Below, piece after piece: positions 23,016-34,942 of a stretch of 64,000 nt of DNA; position 1 is the stretch's first letter, and the number at the start of each line of letters is the position of its first letter. The stretch spans positions 1,043,713 through 1,107,712 of the forward strand of contig CP070761.1 in assembly GCA_020348985.1 (NCBI GenBank), in the 5' to 3' direction. The DNA comes from Candidatus Thorarchaeota archaeon (GTDB lineage Archaea > Asgardarchaeota > Thorarchaeia > Thorarchaeales > Thorarchaeaceae). The notes beneath the pieces are model-generated. The model was given only the letters and a program-made list of their open reading frames with translations. It had not been told where the DNA came from and ran no database searches. The position numbers and the translations under genes are program-made.

Positions 23016-26000
23016 TTAGCTCCCTCCCTGCCTAAGCGGACTTGGCCCCAGTTTTTCAACAACTTCTGTGAGTTTCTTGACCGTCTCTGCGTATATGGGA
23101 CCTTCACTTGCGCTTATCTGCGTAAACTGAAGCCTGTCAGTTTCAAGACCCGCTTTCTCGATAATCTTCTTTGCAATCGAGTACCGACGTTCGAAGGTGA
23201 CATTACCATCAACATAATGGCAATCTCCAAAGTGGCATCCCGAAATCCAGACCATGTCCGCCCCCAGTCTGAACGCTTCTAGGATGTGGGTCACGCTGAC
23301 TCGACCGGTACACATCACTCTGATATCTCGAACTGTCGTTGGCTGCTGCAATCTCGCTACGCCAGCTGAGTCTGCACCGGCGTAGGTACACCAGTTGCAC
23401 ATTATCGTAAGAATTCTCAACTGATTGGGGGGGACCTCTTCCAGTGCATTTCGCACTTGGGCCATAATCTGGTCGTCGGTGAAGTGGCGCATTGTGATGG
23501 CCCCTGCCGGGCACCCTGCCGCACACTTACCACAGCCCTGGCACAACACGGCATTGGAAACTGCGTAATCGTGACTACCATCGCCCGGAATGACCTCAAT
23601 GGCATTGTAGGCACAGTTGATCTCACATGTTCCACAGCCAACACAGACCTCTGGGTCCACGACAGACACGATAGCCTCTGCTTTCCTAATGCCCTGAATA
23701 AGTGGGATTAGAGCTCTCATGGCGGCACCTTGACCCTGCACTATGGCCTCTGCTGTAGTCTTGGGTGCGGTTGCGGTTCCTGCTACAAAGACTCCGTCTG
23801 TCTGGAAGTCGACCGGACGAAGCTTAGGATGTGCCTCCATGAAGAATCCTGACATGTTGAGGGAAAGCTTGAACAGCTCAGAGACCTCTTTGTTCTGTTC
23901 CCTAGGAATCATGGCGGTTGCAAGTACAACATGGTCAACATCCAAAAGGAGCTCAGCACCGAGGACCTGGTCTCTGACTTTGACCGACAATGGTTTCTCT
24001 TTCTTTCCTTTCTTGACTTCGGGAGGCGAGTCACCATCGTATCGGATGAAGACCGCACCTTTTCTTCTGGCATCACCGTACCTATCTTCTCCATCGTAGG
24101 ACACTCTGAGGTCTCTGTAAAGGTGGAAGACTCTAGAGTTGGGATTCTTCTCCAATAGCTCTAGTGTATGTGTGACAGCAACAGTACAGCAGATTCCTGA
24201 ACACCAAGTCCTTGAACCTTCGAGTGATTCGTCTTCTCTGGAACCTGCGCAGTGAATAATCGCAAAGGTTTGACCGTCCTCGATTCCCTTTCCGTCAGCA
24301 ATCATGCGATTGAAATCAGAGGCAGTTATTACGTTTGGAATCTTCCCCAGACCAAATAGACCCTTTTCCCTAAGCTCTGTTGCACCGGTGGCAACGATAA
24401 CAACGCCGACCTTGAGCTCATGCTTATCTTTTCCTGACTTCACCACAATGTCGAAGTCCCCGATTGCACCTTTGGCCTCGACAACTTCGGAGTTCAACAG
24501 CAGCTCGATGTTGGGGTACTTCCTGATTCTGCTCTCAAGATCTTTGATAACCTCAGATGTTGATGTCTGGCCAATATTGACGGTACGGAGTTCATGCAAA
24601 AATCCCCCTAGCCAGTTGTCCTTCTCAACCAAGTACACTTTGAAGCCCTTGGCAGCGATTACTTCAGCGGCGGACATTCCGGCTACTCCGGCGCCGATGA
24701 CAAGAACAGTGGGCTCAATCTCTGCCACTGCTTCTTCCTGAGGCTCGAGAAGTGCAGAGCGAGCGACCGCCATCTTGACAAGGTCCATTGCCTTCAGAGT
24801 GGCTTCGTCTTTGGCGCTTTGATGAATCCATGAACAATGCTCTCTGATATTGGCCAGCTCGAACAGATACTTGTTGAGACCTGCTTCTTCGATTGTGGCC
24901 CTGAACAGAGGTTCATGAGTCCTAGGAGTGCAAGACGCGACTACGACTCTAGTCAGGCTATGTTCCTGAATTGCGTCCTTTATCACAACCTGTGCGTCGG
25001 ATGAGCATGAGTAGAGGAGATTCTCTGAGTGAACTACGTGAGGAAGACTAGATGCAAATTCTGTAACTTCCCCAACGTCAACGGTGCCTGCAATATTGGT
25101 GCCGCAAGAACAGACGAAAACCCCGATCCTTGGTTCGCCTGTCATCAATTCCAGGTCAGCTTCAGTCAATGCCTCTGTTGAAGTGGACACCTCGGGTGTT
25201 GCTATATCGAGCGCGGCGAGTGCAGCCGCAGCGCTTCCTTGTGCAACGGCGTCAGGAATGTCCTTTGGTCCTTGAACTGCGCCACACATGTGGATTCCGG
25301 GAACGCCCGTCTCTGAGTAGAGAAGGCTGTCTTGAGCTTGAACGAAGCCGTATTCGTCCTCTTTGAGTCCTAGCATATCATAGAGTTCCTTGTTCTTTGA
25401 CGGAACCATGGCAGGACAAAGGACGACGAGATCATAACGGTCCTCTAGGACTTCGTGCCCTTTTGCATCGCTATGTCTGATGATGAGGTCTCTTGTCTTT
25501 GGGTCTTCGAAGATTTCGCTCGGCAGACCCTTCACATAATTGATCGCATACTCGTTTTCACCGCGTACTAGGAACTCCTCAAACCCCTTCCCAAACGCCC
25601 TCATGTCATTATACAGGATGTCAATCTCAACCTCCGGCGTGTGCTCTTTCGTGATGATTGCCTCTTTAGTAGCATAAGTACAGCAGATTCTAGAGCAGTA
25701 CGCACAGTGCGACACGTCACGCGACCCCACACATTGGATAAACGCAATGTGATGCGGCTCTCTTCCTTCGGACGGCCGCATGACTACGCCTCCTGTCGGA
25801 CCACTCGCAGAGACCATCCTCTCGTACTCAAGCGCCGACACAACATTGGGAAATCGTCCGAAGCCGTATTCTGGAATTGATGAGGGATCGAGAAGGTCGT
25901 AGCCCGTGGCAACGATGATAGAACCGGCATCAATCACAACAGTCTCATCAGCGATGTCGAATATGATGGCCTCTGCTTTGCAGGTCTTGACACACGTCAT

Positions 26001-26477
26001 GCATTCTATGCAATTGTCCATGTCAATCGTTGCTATGTTTGGGACAGCTTGTGGAAACGGAATGTAAGCTGCTTTTCGCATTTTGAGTCCCATATCATAT
26101 TCGTTGGGAACCTCGATTGGACATACTCTCTCACAATCACCGCATCCAGTACACTTCTCTGCATCTACTCTCCGAGTTCGCTTCAGAACCTTGACTTTGA
26201 AGTCACCCTGACTCCCAGAAACTTCAGTGACCTCAGAATATGCCAGAATCTCTATGTTTCGATGGCGTGAACAGTCGACCATCCAAGGACCCTGTATGCA
26301 CATACTACAGTCCAAAGTCGGGAAGGTCTTGTCAAGCTGGGACATATGACCTCCTATTGATGGAAGTCGCTCGACAAGATTCACCTTGACACCCATGTCT
26401 GCAAGATCAAGAGCGGCACGCATTCCAGCTATGCCTGCGCCTATAATGACAACCGGCTTCGTTGCGGATTCTGCCAT
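23016..26477 (-). CDS. hdrA: Tandem HdrA fused to a C-terminal MvhD/FlpD domain
   Basis: LDKTFPTLDCSMC, CSRICC, RIGVFVCSCG, ANIREHCSW, second GAGVAG, ferredoxin, then MvhD motifs CNWCTY, RVMCTGRV, GCHFGDCHY, ISASEG. Start re-called to ATG 26477 after GGAGTGAG. Confidence 0.92.
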   Translation of the reverse strand: MAESATKPVVIIGAGIAGMRAALDLADMGVKVNLVERLPSIGGHMSQLDKTFPTLDCSMCIQGPWMVDCSRHRNIEILAYSEVTEVSGSQGDFKVKVLKRTRRVDAEKCTGCGDCERVCPIEVPNEYDMGLKMRKAAYIPFPQAVPNIATIDMDNCIECMTCVKTCKAEAIIFDIADETVVIDAGSIIVATGYDLLDPSSIPEYGFGRFPNVVSALEYERMVSASGPTGGVVMRPSEGREPHHIAFIQCVGSRDVSHCAYCSRICCTYATKEAIITKEHTPEVEIDILYNDMRAFGKGFEEFLVRGENEYAINYVKGLPSEIFEDPKTRDLIIRHSDAKGHEVLEDRYDLVVLCPAMVPSKNKELYDMLGLKEDEYGFVQAQDSLLYSETGVPGIHMCGAVQGPKDIPDAVAQGSAAAALAALDIATPEVSTSTEALTEADLELMTGEPRIGVFVCSCGTNIAGTVDVGEVTEFASSLPHVVHSENLLYSCSSDAQVVIKDAIQEHSLTRVVVASCTPRTHEPLFRATIEEAGLNKYLFELANIREHCSWIHQSAKDEATLKAMDLVKMAVARSALLEPQEEAVAEIEPTVLVIGAGVAGMSAAEVIAAKGFKVYLVEKDNWLGGFLHELRTVNIGQTSTSEVIKDLESRIRKYPNIELLLNSEVVEAKGAIGDFDIVVKSGKDKHELKVGVVIVATGATELREKGLFGLGKIPNVITASDFNRMIADGKGIEDGQTFAIIHCAGSREDESLEGSRTWCSGICCTVAVTHTLELLEKNPNSRVFHLYRDLRVSYDGEDRYGDARRKGAVFIRYDGDSPPEVKKGKKEKPLSVKVRDQVLGAELLLDVDHVVLATAMIPREQNKEVSELFKLSLNMSGFFMEAHPKLRPVDFQTDGVFVAGTATAPKTTAEAIVQGQGAAMRALIPLIQGIRKAEAIVSVVDPEVCVGCGTCEINCAYNAIEVIPGDGSHDYAVSNAVLCQGCGKCAAGCPAGAITMRHFTDDQIMAQVRNALEEVPPNQLRILTIMCNWCTYAGADSAGVARLQQPTTVRDIRVMCTGRVSVTHILEAFRLGADMVWISGCHFGDCHYVDGNVTFERRYSIAKKIIEKAGLETDRLQFTQISASEGPIYAETVKKLTEVVEKLGPSPLRQGGS

Positions 26478-30613: not shown

Positions 30614-30841
30614 TCAATCAGACCGGATTATGTCTGGCGGTCGAGGAAGCAGTGTTCGATCTATTCTGATGACTCTCACTGGGCATTGGAACTCGCAAGC
30701 TGTACAATCAATACAGTTTCCGGGATTTGCCAGCTCGGCTTTCTTGGCTTCTTTGTCTATTCGCCACACCCCTCTAGGACAAACGAGAATGCAGTCTTCG
30801 CAGCCAACACATGCATCATAATCGTATGTTATCACAATCAT
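30614..30841 (-). CDS. 2[4Fe-4S] ferredoxin (HgcB-like position, no C-terminal Cys tail)
   Basis: CVGCEDCILVCP and CIDCTACEFQCP; 5 nt downstream of the HgcA-like gene. Confidence 0.88.
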   Translation of the reverse strand: MIVITYDYDACVGCEDCILVCPRGVWRIDKEAKKAELANPGNCIDCTACEFQCPVRVIRIDRTLLPRPPDIIRSD

Positions 30842-30846
30842 CGACC

Positions 30847-31809
30847 TCAGACAAGCCCTCCGGGAAAGTAGAAGCCCAATGCAAAGATGGCGATCAGCAG
30901 TATGAGTCCCACAATGATGTCGCGCTCCATCTGGACCTCACCCATGAACGGCGTAGCACCACCCCAATTGAAACCCACGAAGATAGACAGTCCCAGAATA
31001 GTAAGGCCAGTTGTGTCTAGCCAGACCAGTGGGGCCATGTAGAATACGACGACCACGACCTTCCATAAGAACAGTGAAAGAACTCCCGTTATGGTACCCT
31101 TAACCAAACCGGATGTTGTGGGCATCATCGGGTCCGCTATTGACATGAAAGTGCCAAATGCGTATGCGGCAAGCAAGAGAAGAATTAGATTCGAAGACCA
31201 AAAGCCAAACCAATCGAGAAGGGGACCTCCGAAGAGAGATAACACCCAGAATATTGGAGTCATCATGAGGAACATAGCAGTCTCAAAAACCAGATGTCTA
31301 AGGTTCTCTTCAAGACGGCTACGAAGTTCAAAGGTCACCAAGCTCTGCTCTGCAGACTTCTTGAAACCGTTCCCAATGAATTCACCAACATCATCTATGT
31401 CAACAGGCCCAAACACTGCATCCCAGCCATTGTCCTTCAATTCAGGTTTGGAAACTGCACTGGCAATTAGCTGTGGTAAGATGAGCATTCTGTGGTTGAC
31501 TGCTTCAGCAAGTTTGAATTCGTCAATTGCATCTAGGACTGAGGCTGTGTTCACATGTCCGCCTCTACTGCCGCACCACACGTTGATTCCTCTTCCGTCG
31601 ACCACTAGTAGATGGCATCTAATGCCTTGTCTCTCGATTGAGTCCATCACACGACTTACAGTAAGATAGTAGTTGACCGTGACAAGCACCGGAGACTCCT
31701 CGTTTGGTTCATTGAATGAATAGAGCCCAGTCGGGTATTCAATGGCCAGGACAGGCCACATCATCTGGCCACCCAGAACACACGCATAGTATTTTGCTCC
31801 TTTACTCAT
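30847..31809 (-). CDS. HgcA-like membrane corrinoid protein (CdhD/CdhE-type cobalamin domain plus about 5 TM helices), non-canonical cap helix
   Basis: TGLY...P.EESPVLVTVNYYLT, LVVDGRGINVWCGSRGG, HRMLILPQL, FGPV, VTF..RSRL, TM region with FNWGGATPF. Confidence 0.85.
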   Translation of the reverse strand: MSKGAKYYACVLGGQMMWPVLAIEYPTGLYSFNEPNEESPVLVTVNYYLTVSRVMDSIERQGIRCHLLVVDGRGINVWCGSRGGHVNTASVLDAIDEFKLAEAVNHRMLILPQLIASAVSKPELKDNGWDAVFGPVDIDDVGEFIGNGFKKSAEQSLVTFELRSRLEENLRHLVFETAMFLMMTPIFWVLSLFGGPLLDWFGFWSSNLILLLLAAYAFGTFMSIADPMMPTTSGLVKGTITGVLSLFLWKVVVVVFYMAPLVWLDTTGLTILGLSIFVGFNWGGATPFMGEVQMERDIIVGLILLIAIFALGFYFPGGLV

Positions 31810-32468
31810 TTCTCCGCCTCCGCTACAAACAGGACAAGCATCCCTTGTAGGAATGATACCTTGTATCTTGGGTTCAGGCCAGCATTCTTCATGGCTTGAG
31901 CAACTCTGTGATGAGGGTGGGATATCAGAGTCGTCAGCTTGCTGACAATCCAGAAGCTTGCTCTCCTAATCATAGAGGTAAATGCCCCAATCAAACCGGC
32001 GCGCACTTCTCCTTCCCCGCCGATTGCTACGAGCCCGCCAGGCTTAACCATCCTAGCAGCTTCTTGCAGAAGGCGCTCTAGTTCTTTTGGTTGAAGTTCG
32101 CTAATCAAGAGCGTGCTGACGACTATATCAAACGTGTGGGCTTCTATGTCAAGACTTAGAGCACTCCCAAGAAAGAATCTCAGCCGTCTCTTCAGGTTGT
32201 ATCTTCTGCATCGCTCTTGGGCGAGCTTGAGCATTCGAGGATTTAGATCGACTCCAACACCAGTCGCACCTCTGCGCCCTGCCTCTACAAGCAACTGACC
32301 AGTTCCGCAACCAAGATCAAGGACTCGACCTCGTCTAGGTACGACGCTGTCCAGCAGGTAGTTTCTCATGGCCGAGGCTTGGCCTAGTGTGAGTAGTCCA
32401 ATCCAGCGGTCATACTGGTTGGCCGCTCGTTCTTCAGTTAGCCTCATCAGAATAGTCGCCATGACCAC
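31806..32468 (-). CDS. Class I SAM-dependent methyltransferase (corrinoid-protein-associated, CpaM-like)
   Basis: VLDLGCGTG, GVD, FDIVVS, VKPGG; N-terminal LMRL.E....YD..I.LLTLG; ATGA overlap with the HgcA-like gene. Confidence 0.85.
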   Translation of the reverse strand: MVMATILMRLTEERAANQYDRWIGLLTLGQASAMRNYLLDSVVPRRGRVLDLGCGTGQLLVEAGRRGATGVGVDLNPRMLKLAQERCRRYNLKRRLRFFLGSALSLDIEAHTFDIVVSTLLISELQPKELERLLQEAARMVKPGGLVAIGGEGEVRAGLIGAFTSMIRRASFWIVSKLTTLISHPHHRVAQAMKNAGLNPRYKVSFLQGMLVLFVAEAEK

Positions 32469-32920: not shown

Positions 32921-33382
32921 ATGCAGCAGATTGACTTTGCTTCCATATCCATCATAATCGCTTCGACATGTGTTGTTGTTGGAGTTATTCTTGCGATACT
33001 TCAGCTTAGAGACCAGGTCAAGAACCGGCAAGCACAGCTTGTCGTCCAACTCTAAGCCCAGTTCAGCGATCCAGAGTTCCTGAAGAATCTCGCATACGTG
33101 GTTGATTTGCCCACGCAGGACGCATCAGACGACCGGCTTGTGCGTCTGACCACGAGAAATGAAACGGTTGTCTCAGTTATGGCCTTCTTTGAGGGCGTTG
33201 GAGTTCTTGTGAATAGGGGCTTGATTGATATCAACCTGGTGGGAGACATGCTTTCCACTCCAATCATACTAGCTTGGCAAGCCGTTGAACCGCACATCAT
33301 GGCTCGAAGGAAAGCGGTACAGCGGGACCAGATTTGGGACTGGTTTGAGTATCTGTACAATAGAATCCAGAGCCTGCCCTAA
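32921..33382 (+). pseudogene. DUF4760-like membrane-anchored protein interrupted by an in-frame TAA
   Basis: MQQIDFASISIIIASTCVVVGVILAILQLRDQVKNRQAQLVVQL*AQFSDPEF...FFEGVGVLVNRGLID...WDWFEYLY; TAA at 33053-33055; AGGTG SD. Confidence 0.7.
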
Positions 33383-33448: not shown

Positions 33449-34393
33449 CTACTCGGTAGGAACAGCATCCTCTGCTTTCTGCACTTCAATGCCAAGTCGT
33501 TCCCAATTGGGTTCGTTCTTTCTCATCTGGTATTGAAGATGGGTCGTTAGGCCAAACTCCTCCGGTTCGTGACCGAAAGCCAGAGCCAGCAACTCAACGA
33601 CGTGCAGTATGTCGTAGTGATACTCCGTTTCGAAATGCTTCTGAATCTCCACCTGTCCAAGGTCTAGTTGCAGCTCGCAGAATGGACATGGTGTGACGAT
33701 TATGTCTGCGCCACCCACCGACTCCAGGCTGTCAAACTTCTGCTTCGTGAAGTCAAGTGCTGTCTTTACGTCGGCAGTTCTTACTGCACCCCCGGCACCA
33801 CAGCATATCAGTTCGTCCTTGTACGGAACATATTCTGCGCCTGTTGTCTCACAGATATCACGGAGTATGTGCGGTCTCTCTGATTCGTCCTTCTTCTTGA
33901 TATGCTTCGGACGCATCCAGTGGCAGCCCGGATGAATCGCCATCCTAACGCCAGTCAAAGGTCTGGTGACCTTCTCGCGAATCTTATCCAGTCCTATTCG
34001 ATGAAGTGCATCAACGTGGTGTGTGACCTCGATTGTGCCCTTATACTCTCTCCCAACTTCAGCAAGAGCTTCGTTCACTGCTGCCTTAAGCTCTGGATCG
34101 TGCTTCATCTCATGGTCGGCATCAAACATGCTGGCGAAGCATCCGTTGCATCCAGTGGTAATGTCATGACCTCCAACCTCTGCAATTGTCAGATTCCGTG
34201 CTGCAATGGCCGCCCAAGTTACACGGTCGAACGAACCGAAGACTCCGGGAGCAGGACAGCAACTGGCACCCTCCATATCAAGAAGCTCCATGCCCAGATC
34301 TTTGAAGACTAGTCGAGCGGCGCTCTCTATGCTAGGATATCTATGCGGAATAATGCACCCAAGGAAATGGTAGTACTTCTGCTTCTTTGCCAT
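33449..34393 (-). CDS. hdrB: Heterodisulfide reductase subunit B (methanogen-type SCCPAPG)
   Basis: FLGCIIPHRYP, ASCCPAPGVFGS, GCNGC, HPGCH, CCGAGG, CPFC. Confidence 0.93.
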   Translation of the reverse strand: MAKKQKYYHFLGCIIPHRYPSIESAARLVFKDLGMELLDMEGASCCPAPGVFGSFDRVTWAAIAARNLTIAEVGGHDITTGCNGCFASMFDADHEMKHDPELKAAVNEALAEVGREYKGTIEVTHHVDALHRIGLDKIREKVTRPLTGVRMAIHPGCHWMRPKHIKKKDESERPHILRDICETTGAEYVPYKDELICCGAGGAVRTADVKTALDFTKQKFDSLESVGGADIIVTPCPFCELQLDLGQVEIQKHFETEYHYDILHVVELLALAFGHEPEEFGLTTHLQYQMRKNEPNWERLGIEVQKAEDAVPTE

Positions 34394-34942
34394 CTACTCA
34401 CTCGCCTCCTTTTCTGCAACCAGCTTGTCAAAGCCGGTCTTCTTGGCAATCTTCACGATTTCTTCGATGGCATCTGGAAATCTGCTTGCATTAGGCGGAA
34501 CTGGCTCGATATTCACCTTTTCACGAAGCTTCTCCCATGACTCTTTGTCAAGAGGAACTGCATGACCAGCTTCGAGGACTTTCAGGGCCACTTTCTGATG
34601 GGGTTCAAGCATGTAGCCTTCAGCAACGGCCACATTCCGTATCGCCTTGATCACATCAGTCGGCTTGACATCCTGCGGACATCTGTCAGTGCATGTGTAA
34701 CATGTTGTACAGTACCATAGTTCGGGACCCGAAATACAGTCTTCCTTCAGACCAAGTAACGCCTTTCGGATGATTCCTCTGACGAGATAGTTCGTGCGGG
34801 CTCCTGCAGGACAGCTTCCGCTGCAAGTGCCGCATTGATAGCACGATCGGATGTTAGGGCCTCCAGTCTTGATAATCATTTCAACGAAGTCTGTGTCAAC
34901 GTCGTCAATATCTATGGGAGCCTTCTCTTCCGCACTGGTCAA
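34394..34942 (-). CDS. hdrC: Heterodisulfide reductase subunit C
   Basis: CYQCGTCSGSCP, WYCTTCYTCTDRCP, GHAVP. Confidence 0.93.
   Translation of the reverse strand: MTSAEEKAPIDIDDVDTDFVEMIIKTGGPNIRSCYQCGTCSGSCPAGARTNYLVRGIIRKALLGLKEDCISGPELWYCTTCYTCTDRCPQDVKPTDVIKAIRNVAVAEGYMLEPHQKVALKVLEAGHAVPLDKESWEKLREKVNIEPVPPNASRFPDAIEEIVKIAKKTGFDKLVAEKEASE

Follow-up and report, generated by a model that had tools for sequence, protein, structure and literature searches.

Background

The native role of the HgcA family of corrinoid proteins is a long-standing question, and it took until 2024 to show that S-adenosylmethionine (SAM) donates the methyl group in canonical HgcAB. In that work cobalamin of purified HgcAB was methylated by SAM, a Cys-ligated methyl-Co(III) was formed, and the HgcB clusters acted as electron relays (Zheng et al. 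2024, PMC11588087). Here we analyzed a stretch of 64,000 nucleotides from the genome of Candidatus Thorarchaeota archaeon (assembly GCA_020348985.1, contig CP070761.1, positions 1,043,713 to 1,107,712; hereafter the window), which contains an operon of three genes encoding a SAM-type methyltransferase (MT), an HgcA-like corrinoid membrane protein and an HgcB-like ferredoxin. With moderate confidence we read this trio as a split and divergent form of the CpaM plus HgcAB-like module, carrying out membrane-anchored, SAM-dependent, corrinoid-mediated methyl transfer.

Several features are used to recognize mercury methylators. The accepted motif of the cap helix is N(V/I)WC(A/S)(A/G/S)GK, and each of the six motifs admitted under a high-stringency criterion ends in GK (PMC10087281). 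In HgcB, residues C73, C94 and C95 are reported to be crucial, as stated in the passage of PMC11588087 that cites Smith 2015. Cultured P. furiosus and M. methylutens, which carry fused HgcAB-like genes, made no methylmercury (PMC5893877, PMC10087281). Lin et al. 2023 placed some Thor- and Lokiarchaeota sequences in the 'fused' subtree of the family.

Results

Organization of the operon

The genome consists of a single 3.16-Mb contig, and the features of the operon are distributed as follows in the window:

31806..32468, minus strand: CpaM-like class I SAM methyltransferase (P0001), GTG start, 220 aa
30847..31809, minus strand: HgcA-like corrinoid membrane protein (P0002), 320 aa
31552..31590, minus strand: cap-helix segment G74-V86 of P0002, GINVWCGSRGGHV, with the putative cobalt ligand Cys79 (from the alignment)
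30868..31326, minus strand: transmembrane (TM) domain of P0002, residues 162-314, five helices (from AlphaFold2 secondary structure and cross-clade alignment)
30614..30841, minus strand: HgcB-like 2x[4Fe-4S] ferredoxin (P0003), 75 aa

The family-conserved start MATILM points to the ATG at 32462 as the likely true start of the methyltransferase, which then counts 218 aa (P0044). The stop of this gene and the start of the HgcA-like gene share an ATGA overlap, and the TGA of the latter is followed by 5 nt (GGTCG) and by the ATG of the ferredoxin gene. The initial annotation of the window had described three tightly coupled genes, and this is what the minus-strand reading frames display. Rfam and tRNA scans of the operon flanks gave no match. 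A search of sequencing runs listed only sediment or soil DNA runs, with no RNA run among them.

Conservation of gene order and gene fusions

The three-gene operon is real and conserved in Thorarchaeota-type Asgard archaea. Orthologues of the HgcA-like protein at 56-90% identity span about 40 protein clusters, which places the operon far beyond chance, and the next identity is 35%; the named relatives having orthologues are metagenome-assembled genomes of Thorarchaeota or 'Promethearchaeota'. In a library of 1.84 billion proteins clustered at 50% identity, this group (hereafter the Thor clade) has one representative (442 bits), the next match reaching 167 bits. When 400 Asgard genomes were surveyed, with orthologues defined by 60% identity or more, the orthologues were confined to the family of the window: they were found in three other genera and in neither of the two genomes of the same genus. 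A second Asgard family contains a sister group of 33-38% identity.

A methyltransferase gene is present upstream in 21/21 Thor-type loci having upstream sequence, and a ferredoxin gene downstream in 20/20 loci having downstream sequence, one of them without a standard start codon; the corrinoid protein and the ferredoxin are split in all 20 orthologous loci. The exception as to the start codon is a ferredoxin orthologue (L020:2470-2685) with no ATG, GTG or TTG start, whose frame opens ...VI*TIVFDY, a sequence that suggests a non-standard start codon. In the sister group the gene order is identical in 8/8 loci and the cap helix reads NVWCSAAGG.

In more distant relatives the same parts are fused. 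Among the best 150 of 942 library matches we counted 14 fusions of the methyltransferase to the HgcA-like domain (MT-A), 5 triple fusions with the ferredoxin (MT-A-Fd) and about 35 fusions of the HgcA-like domain to the ferredoxin (A-Fd). Twenty Asgard loci were sampled for fused forms: a CpaM gene lies directly upstream of the A-Fd gene in all 12 A-Fd loci, a ferredoxin gene directly downstream of the MT-A gene in all five MT-A loci, and three further loci hold triple fusions. The A-Fd pairs and one triple fusion exceed both NCBIfam cut-offs, with 249-286 bits for CpaM and 363-452 bits for the HgcAB-like protein. The survey of the methyltransferase-HgcA-like-ferredoxin neighbourhood that the initial annotation had called for thus finds a conserved linkage, backed by gene fusions. 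Since no gene family other than those of the module is shared around it across clades, the module appears self-contained. As judged from gene order and fusions, the trio is a functional unit.

A further architecture was observed in six proteins (P0198, P0214, P0254, P0261, P0271, P0295), in which an N-terminal domain of about 150 aa precedes the HgcA-like domain and the ferredoxin. Their cap helix reads NIWCSSLAGHF, and a Pfam search on the N-terminal domains gave no match.

Identity of the three proteins

The gene identities initially proposed agree with Pfam and NCBIfam, which give a class I SAM methyltransferase, a CdhD/HgcA corrinoid domain and a 2[4Fe-4S] ferredoxin. The methyltransferase, of class I by Pfam, has CpaM (corrinoid protein-associated methyltransferase, NF043040) as its top NCBIfam model: 155 bits, under the curated cut-off of 180 bits, versus 67 bits for the next family, UbiE, i.e. 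a margin of 88 bits. Its SAM motif LDLGCGTG, D74 and D114 are intact, and it carries the N-terminal M-x3-E...Y(D/E) segment of CpaM. This motif (M-x3-E-x(4-7)-Y[DEN]) is present in 39/39 HgcA-linked methyltransferases versus 1/100 generic ones. The gene adjoins that of an HgcA-type corrinoid protein.

The HgcA-like protein matches the CdhD-type corrinoid domain PF03599 with 70 bits in Pfam. Its top NCBIfam model is the HgcAB-like fusion protein NF043039 (186 bits, under the cut-off of 285), and it scores 155 bits against canonical HgcA NF040863 (under the cut-off of 275). A canonical hgcAB pair (L013) used as control scores 460 bits for HgcA and 121 bits for HgcB, which indicates that the NCBIfam models discriminate. 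An AlphaFold model (pLDDT 90, pTM 0.84), for which an alignment of 46 rows was used, places the cap helix at residues 77-83 and five predicted TM helices between residues 162 and 314. In fold this model best matches the HgcAB model 9a0b and the corrinoid domain of the corrinoid iron-sulfur protein (CFeSP), at a root-mean-square deviation (rmsd) of 1.3 A over about 125 residues; at the sequence level, CFeSP alone is matched in the PDB. G74, N76, W78 and C79 (G-x-N-x-W-C) are invariant over 46 family members, canonical HgcA included, and the Cys cobalt ligand, the corrinoid fold and the C-terminal TM domain of canonical HgcA are all predicted to be kept in the window protein. The TM domain carries the family motifs DPxMPTxSG and GFNWGGATP, the second differing by clade: GFNWGGATP in the window protein, MNFTGASTY in canonical HgcA. 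A prediction of the complex between the methyltransferase and residues 1-165 of the HgcA-like protein scored 0.00 and was counted neither way.

Two clade-specific features were observed in P0002. An N-terminal helix K-Y-Y-x-C-x-L-G with Cys10 (residues 6-13, about 31771-31794, minus strand) is present in 27/28 full-length orthologues, and the linker between the methyltransferase and the corrinoid domain holds a similar Cys in 7/12 MT-A fusions. The pair Cys65-His66 (about 31612-31617, minus strand) is invariant in the Thor clade.

The ferredoxin is a 4Fe-4S dicluster protein by Pfam, and its best NCBIfam matches are HgcB NF040864 (54 bits, under the cut-off of 99) and the C-terminal part of NF043039 (55 bits). 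It contains eight cysteines, all in two CxxCxxCxxxCP motifs, and its gene adjoins the hgcA-type gene. The same eight cysteines are the only ones conserved in 15 orthologues: neither the internal Cys of HgcB (C73, in the GC(x)C motif) nor the C-terminal Cys-Cys is present in the window ferredoxin or in these orthologues. The ferredoxin of the sister group (72 aa) is likewise without extra cysteines. Ferredoxins partnering MT-A fusions retain both GCGC and the C-terminal CC.

The features on which the initial annotation had relied are those found here: its HgcA-like motifs are all present (SPVLVTVNY, GINVWCGSRGG, HRMLILPQL, FGPV), its estimate of about five TM helices agrees with the model, and the ferredoxin does end in LLPRPPDIIRSD with no Cys tail.

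Phylogeny and the mercury question

In a tree of the HgcA family rooted on CdhE, the canonical HgcA clade has 100/100 support and the clade of the window lies outside it; the protein is an HgcA paralogue, as had been proposed. The split forms of the Thor clade and of the sister group join at 94/85 support, and the lineage sister to this pair comprises MT-A fusions with canonical HgcA nested among them (87-94 support). An alternative with all methyltransferase-linked forms in one clade was not rejected by the approximately unbiased (AU) test (p = 0.49), and we therefore claim no order of events for the methyltransferase linkage.

The cap helix of the window protein, NVWCGSRG, falls outside the accepted motifs of mercury methylators. 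GSRGG is conserved inside the Thor clade; canonical proteins read CAAGKG, and NVWC-x-x-x-G-G is the norm throughout the CpaM-linked HgcAB-like group. Among the best 150 library matches a CAAGKG-type helix is found only in stand-alone HgcA, and GK in no form fused to a methyltransferase or a ferredoxin. The initial annotation had noted that the mercury-specific features were missing and the cobalt-ligand Cys kept, and the alignments confirm it for the cap-helix GK and the HgcB cysteines on one side and for the invariant C79 on the other. The trio is not a canonical mercury methylase, and it is probably not a mercury methylase at all: the acceptor is probably not Hg(II), since every mercury-specific feature outside the cobalt site is missing.

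Results concerning the 400 Asgard genomes point the same way, with a CpaM-type gene in 204 genomes versus canonical HgcA in one. Asgard hgcA-like matches in metagenomes should consequently not be counted as mercury methylators. The sole canonical HgcA above cut-off (L064, G397:C110:1082-2017) scores 436 bits; its contig may not be Asgard, because the genome has 9% contamination.

Genome context and a second module

The trio is located between hdrC-hdrB upstream (33449-34942, minus strand) and an hdrA-type gene downstream (23046-26477, minus strand). In one related genus hdrA-hdrC-hdrB directly follow the trio in 16 loci, with hdrB before the trio in two of these, and hdrA is directly downstream also in relatives L009 and L011. 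In the window the hdrA orthologue (80% identity) is 3.9 kb downstream of the trio, past four inserted genes: a 271-aa helix-turn-helix-like gene, tldD, pmbA and a small TM reading frame. The 271-aa gene is missing from the loci of relatives and is not counted in the module for this reason. No hdrA was found in the flanks of two other genera. Hdr is a possible source of low-potential electrons for the trio, which we give as a lead only.

The same genome contains a second module outside the window (L001, G000:C1:2835699-2839880), whose genes encode a regulator of the ArsR/SmtB type (L001 positions 350-742), an MT-HgcA fusion of 578 aa (745-2481) and an HgcB-like ferredoxin of 109 aa (2488-2817). 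Its cap helix reads NVWCAARGVHF, and its ferredoxin has GCGC and a C-terminal SCCG. No canonical HgcA was found in this genome.

Other neighbours were recorded. Between the operon and hdrB, a DUF4760-family gene (32921-33382, plus strand) has an in-frame TAA at 33053-33055, probably the mark of a pseudogene or of an error in the assembly. A gene for an integral-membrane methyltransferase of the PEMT/ICMT family adjoins the module in three unrelated Asgard loci (L051:3767-4243, L055:7001-7570, L058:5676-6305), a weak hint at lipid or isoprenoid chemistry. Ras-family small GTPase genes adjoin the module in six loci (L038:3006-3560 together with four other loci of the sister family, and L044:3066-3599); this adjacency is likely lineage synteny.

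Discussion

Proposed mechanism and alternatives

In the cycle that we propose, the ferredoxin would pass low-potential electrons to a cobalamin bound by the HgcA-like protein beneath its cap helix, giving Co(I), to which the CpaM-like methyltransferase would present the methyl group of bound SAM. Cys79 would ligate the resulting methyl-Co(III), and this would favour departure of the methyl group in the form of a carbanion or radical equivalent, to be taken up by an acceptor that the five-helix membrane domain would hold. The use of SAM by purified canonical HgcAB makes such a SAM-corrinoid cycle plausible. We infer its elements (binding of the cofactor, the way in which methyl groups and electrons move, and the acceptor) from the work of Zheng et al. 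2024 and from the fact that a SAM-binding Rossmann domain is obligatorily coupled or fused to the corrinoid domain. The initial annotation had let the methyltransferase either load or unload the methyl group; unloading is chemically unlikely for a SAM enzyme.

The main rival holds that CpaM methylates the substrate itself instead of cobalt. The enzyme would act directly on a substrate or product, in a second reaction or at another site, and the corrinoid would either take the SAM methyl itself or be a Co(I) reductive catalyst, e.g. for dehalogenation. Several observations weigh against our reading. Purified canonical HgcAB takes the methyl group of SAM with no dedicated or additional methyltransferase (PMC11588087), so that CpaM may do something besides loading cobalt. 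In the methyltransferase tree the Thor enzymes fall in a basal polytomy that does not resolve them as sister to the CpaM group, none of the three window proteins reaches the curated cut-off of the family that it resembles, and our literature search found no published assay for any CpaM or HgcAB-like protein. The rival is also favoured by the nearest sequence relatives of CpaM, methyltransferases that act on small molecules (UbiE/MenG and ArsM, for instance), and by halomethane dechlorination by HgcAB, reported in a 2026 preprint (10.64898/2026.04.26.720869). It fits less well with a methyltransferase that is repeatedly fused directly at the N-terminal end of the corrinoid domain, and with the strict co-occurrence of the two, as expected of a partner of the corrinoid domain itself; moreover the Thor methyltransferases lack a conserved Cys cluster of ArsM type, their only conserved Cys being C54, within the SAM motif. 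We consider this rival rather unlikely.

Much less probable still is that the trio is a divergent mercury-methylating hgcAB to which an accessory methyltransferase has been added. The retained Cys ligand, corrinoid fold, TM domain and 2[4Fe-4S] partner would suit it, and true HgcAB also has SAM as donor, but a score of 155 bits against a cut-off of 275 (and 460 for the control), the position outside the canonical clade, the missing GK and HgcB cysteines, the failure of tested organisms with fused relatives to methylate mercury, and the rarity of canonical HgcA beside CpaM-type genes in Asgard genomes all argue otherwise. That the three genes are neighbours through descent alone, with no joint function, is hardly credible: close relatives share gene order anyway, and the hdrA neighbourhood in one genus is of that kind, but the order of the trio is retained at 33-38% identity in another family, and other lineages show every combination of fusion between its parts.

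A broader form of the cobalt-loading reading can be put forward as speculation, and we would not bet on it. A dedicated class I SAM methyltransferase would be the ancestral means of cobalamin loading in the whole HgcA family, and canonical HgcAB, devoid of it, would be derived; the split Thor form, with no thiol tail on its ferredoxin and located between hdr genes in two genera, would be a 'methyl umpolung' enzyme driven by low-potential electrons and acting on a membrane or metalloid substrate other than mercury. If this were true, the Thor form would indicate which native function the family had before mercury.

The explicit SAM-binding partner makes the CpaM-linked relatives a natural system for dissecting the first half-reaction. 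The genome is also a convenient comparison case, as its two paralogous modules differ in ferredoxin cysteines and in the ArsR-type regulator, features thought to be key to metal handling. The value of the finding is moderate and not high: the module is already catalogued.

Comparison with known systems

The initial annotation overstated the novelty. A dedicated methyltransferase next to an HgcA-like protein and a ferredoxin stands as described, whereas NCBIfam already names both CpaM (NF043040) and the HgcAB-like protein (NF043039), and the non-GK cap helix is the norm of that group. No paper on the methyltransferase link was found in a literature search that was incomplete, and 'CpaM' or 'corrinoid protein-associated methyltransferase' returned only unrelated acronyms.

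The large subunit of CFeSP (AcsC/CdhE) with its methyltransferase MeTr resembles the trio by its corrinoid-binding fold (the 125-residue superposition given above) and by its logic, in which a corrinoid carrier dependent on reductive activation is loaded by a methyltransferase. It differs in being soluble, in having Thr instead of Cys at the cap position and methyl-tetrahydrofolate as donor, and in possessing its own [4Fe-4S] and TIM-barrel domains; its methyl group goes to the Ni of acetyl-CoA synthase.

Canonical HgcA and HgcB (NF040863 and NF040864, as in Pseudodesulfovibrio mercurii ND132) share with the trio an NVWC corrinoid domain, a five-helix membrane domain, an adjacent 2[4Fe-4S] ferredoxin and SAM as the shown or likely methyl source. 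In contrast, the CAAGKG helix and the internal and C-terminal cysteines of HgcB have no counterpart in the window proteins, and no methyltransferase is fused to canonical forms in the sampled set. The L001 module is of the same kind as the trio: its methyltransferase domain matches CpaM (117 bits) and its corrinoid/TM domain has 27% identity to P0002, but the methyltransferase is fused, the cap helix has CAARGV, the ferredoxin keeps its GCGC and SCCG, a metalloregulator lies upstream, and its clade is nearer to canonical HgcA in the tree.

The CpaM plus HgcAB-like module has the same parts in the same order (SAM methyltransferase, corrinoid domain with a Cys-type cap helix followed by a TM domain, 2[4Fe-4S] ferredoxin), the non-GK cap helix and the CpaM N-terminal motif are common to both, and the CpaM gene is immediately upstream in the window, with its ATGA overlap, as in the 12/12 A-Fd loci. 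The window differs from it by a corrinoid protein and a ferredoxin encoded as separate genes, by scores below cut-off (155/180 and 186/285), and by proteins that form a long-branched clade of their own, confined to a single Asgard family and with its sister clade in a second one. What is new is a fully split architecture with below-cut-off divergence, confined to two Asgard families; a ferredoxin free of cysteines beyond its clusters; the conserved Cys10 and Cys65-His66 which, with GSRGG, are specific to the clade; and a genome that contains, besides this split trio, a paralogue more similar to HgcAB.

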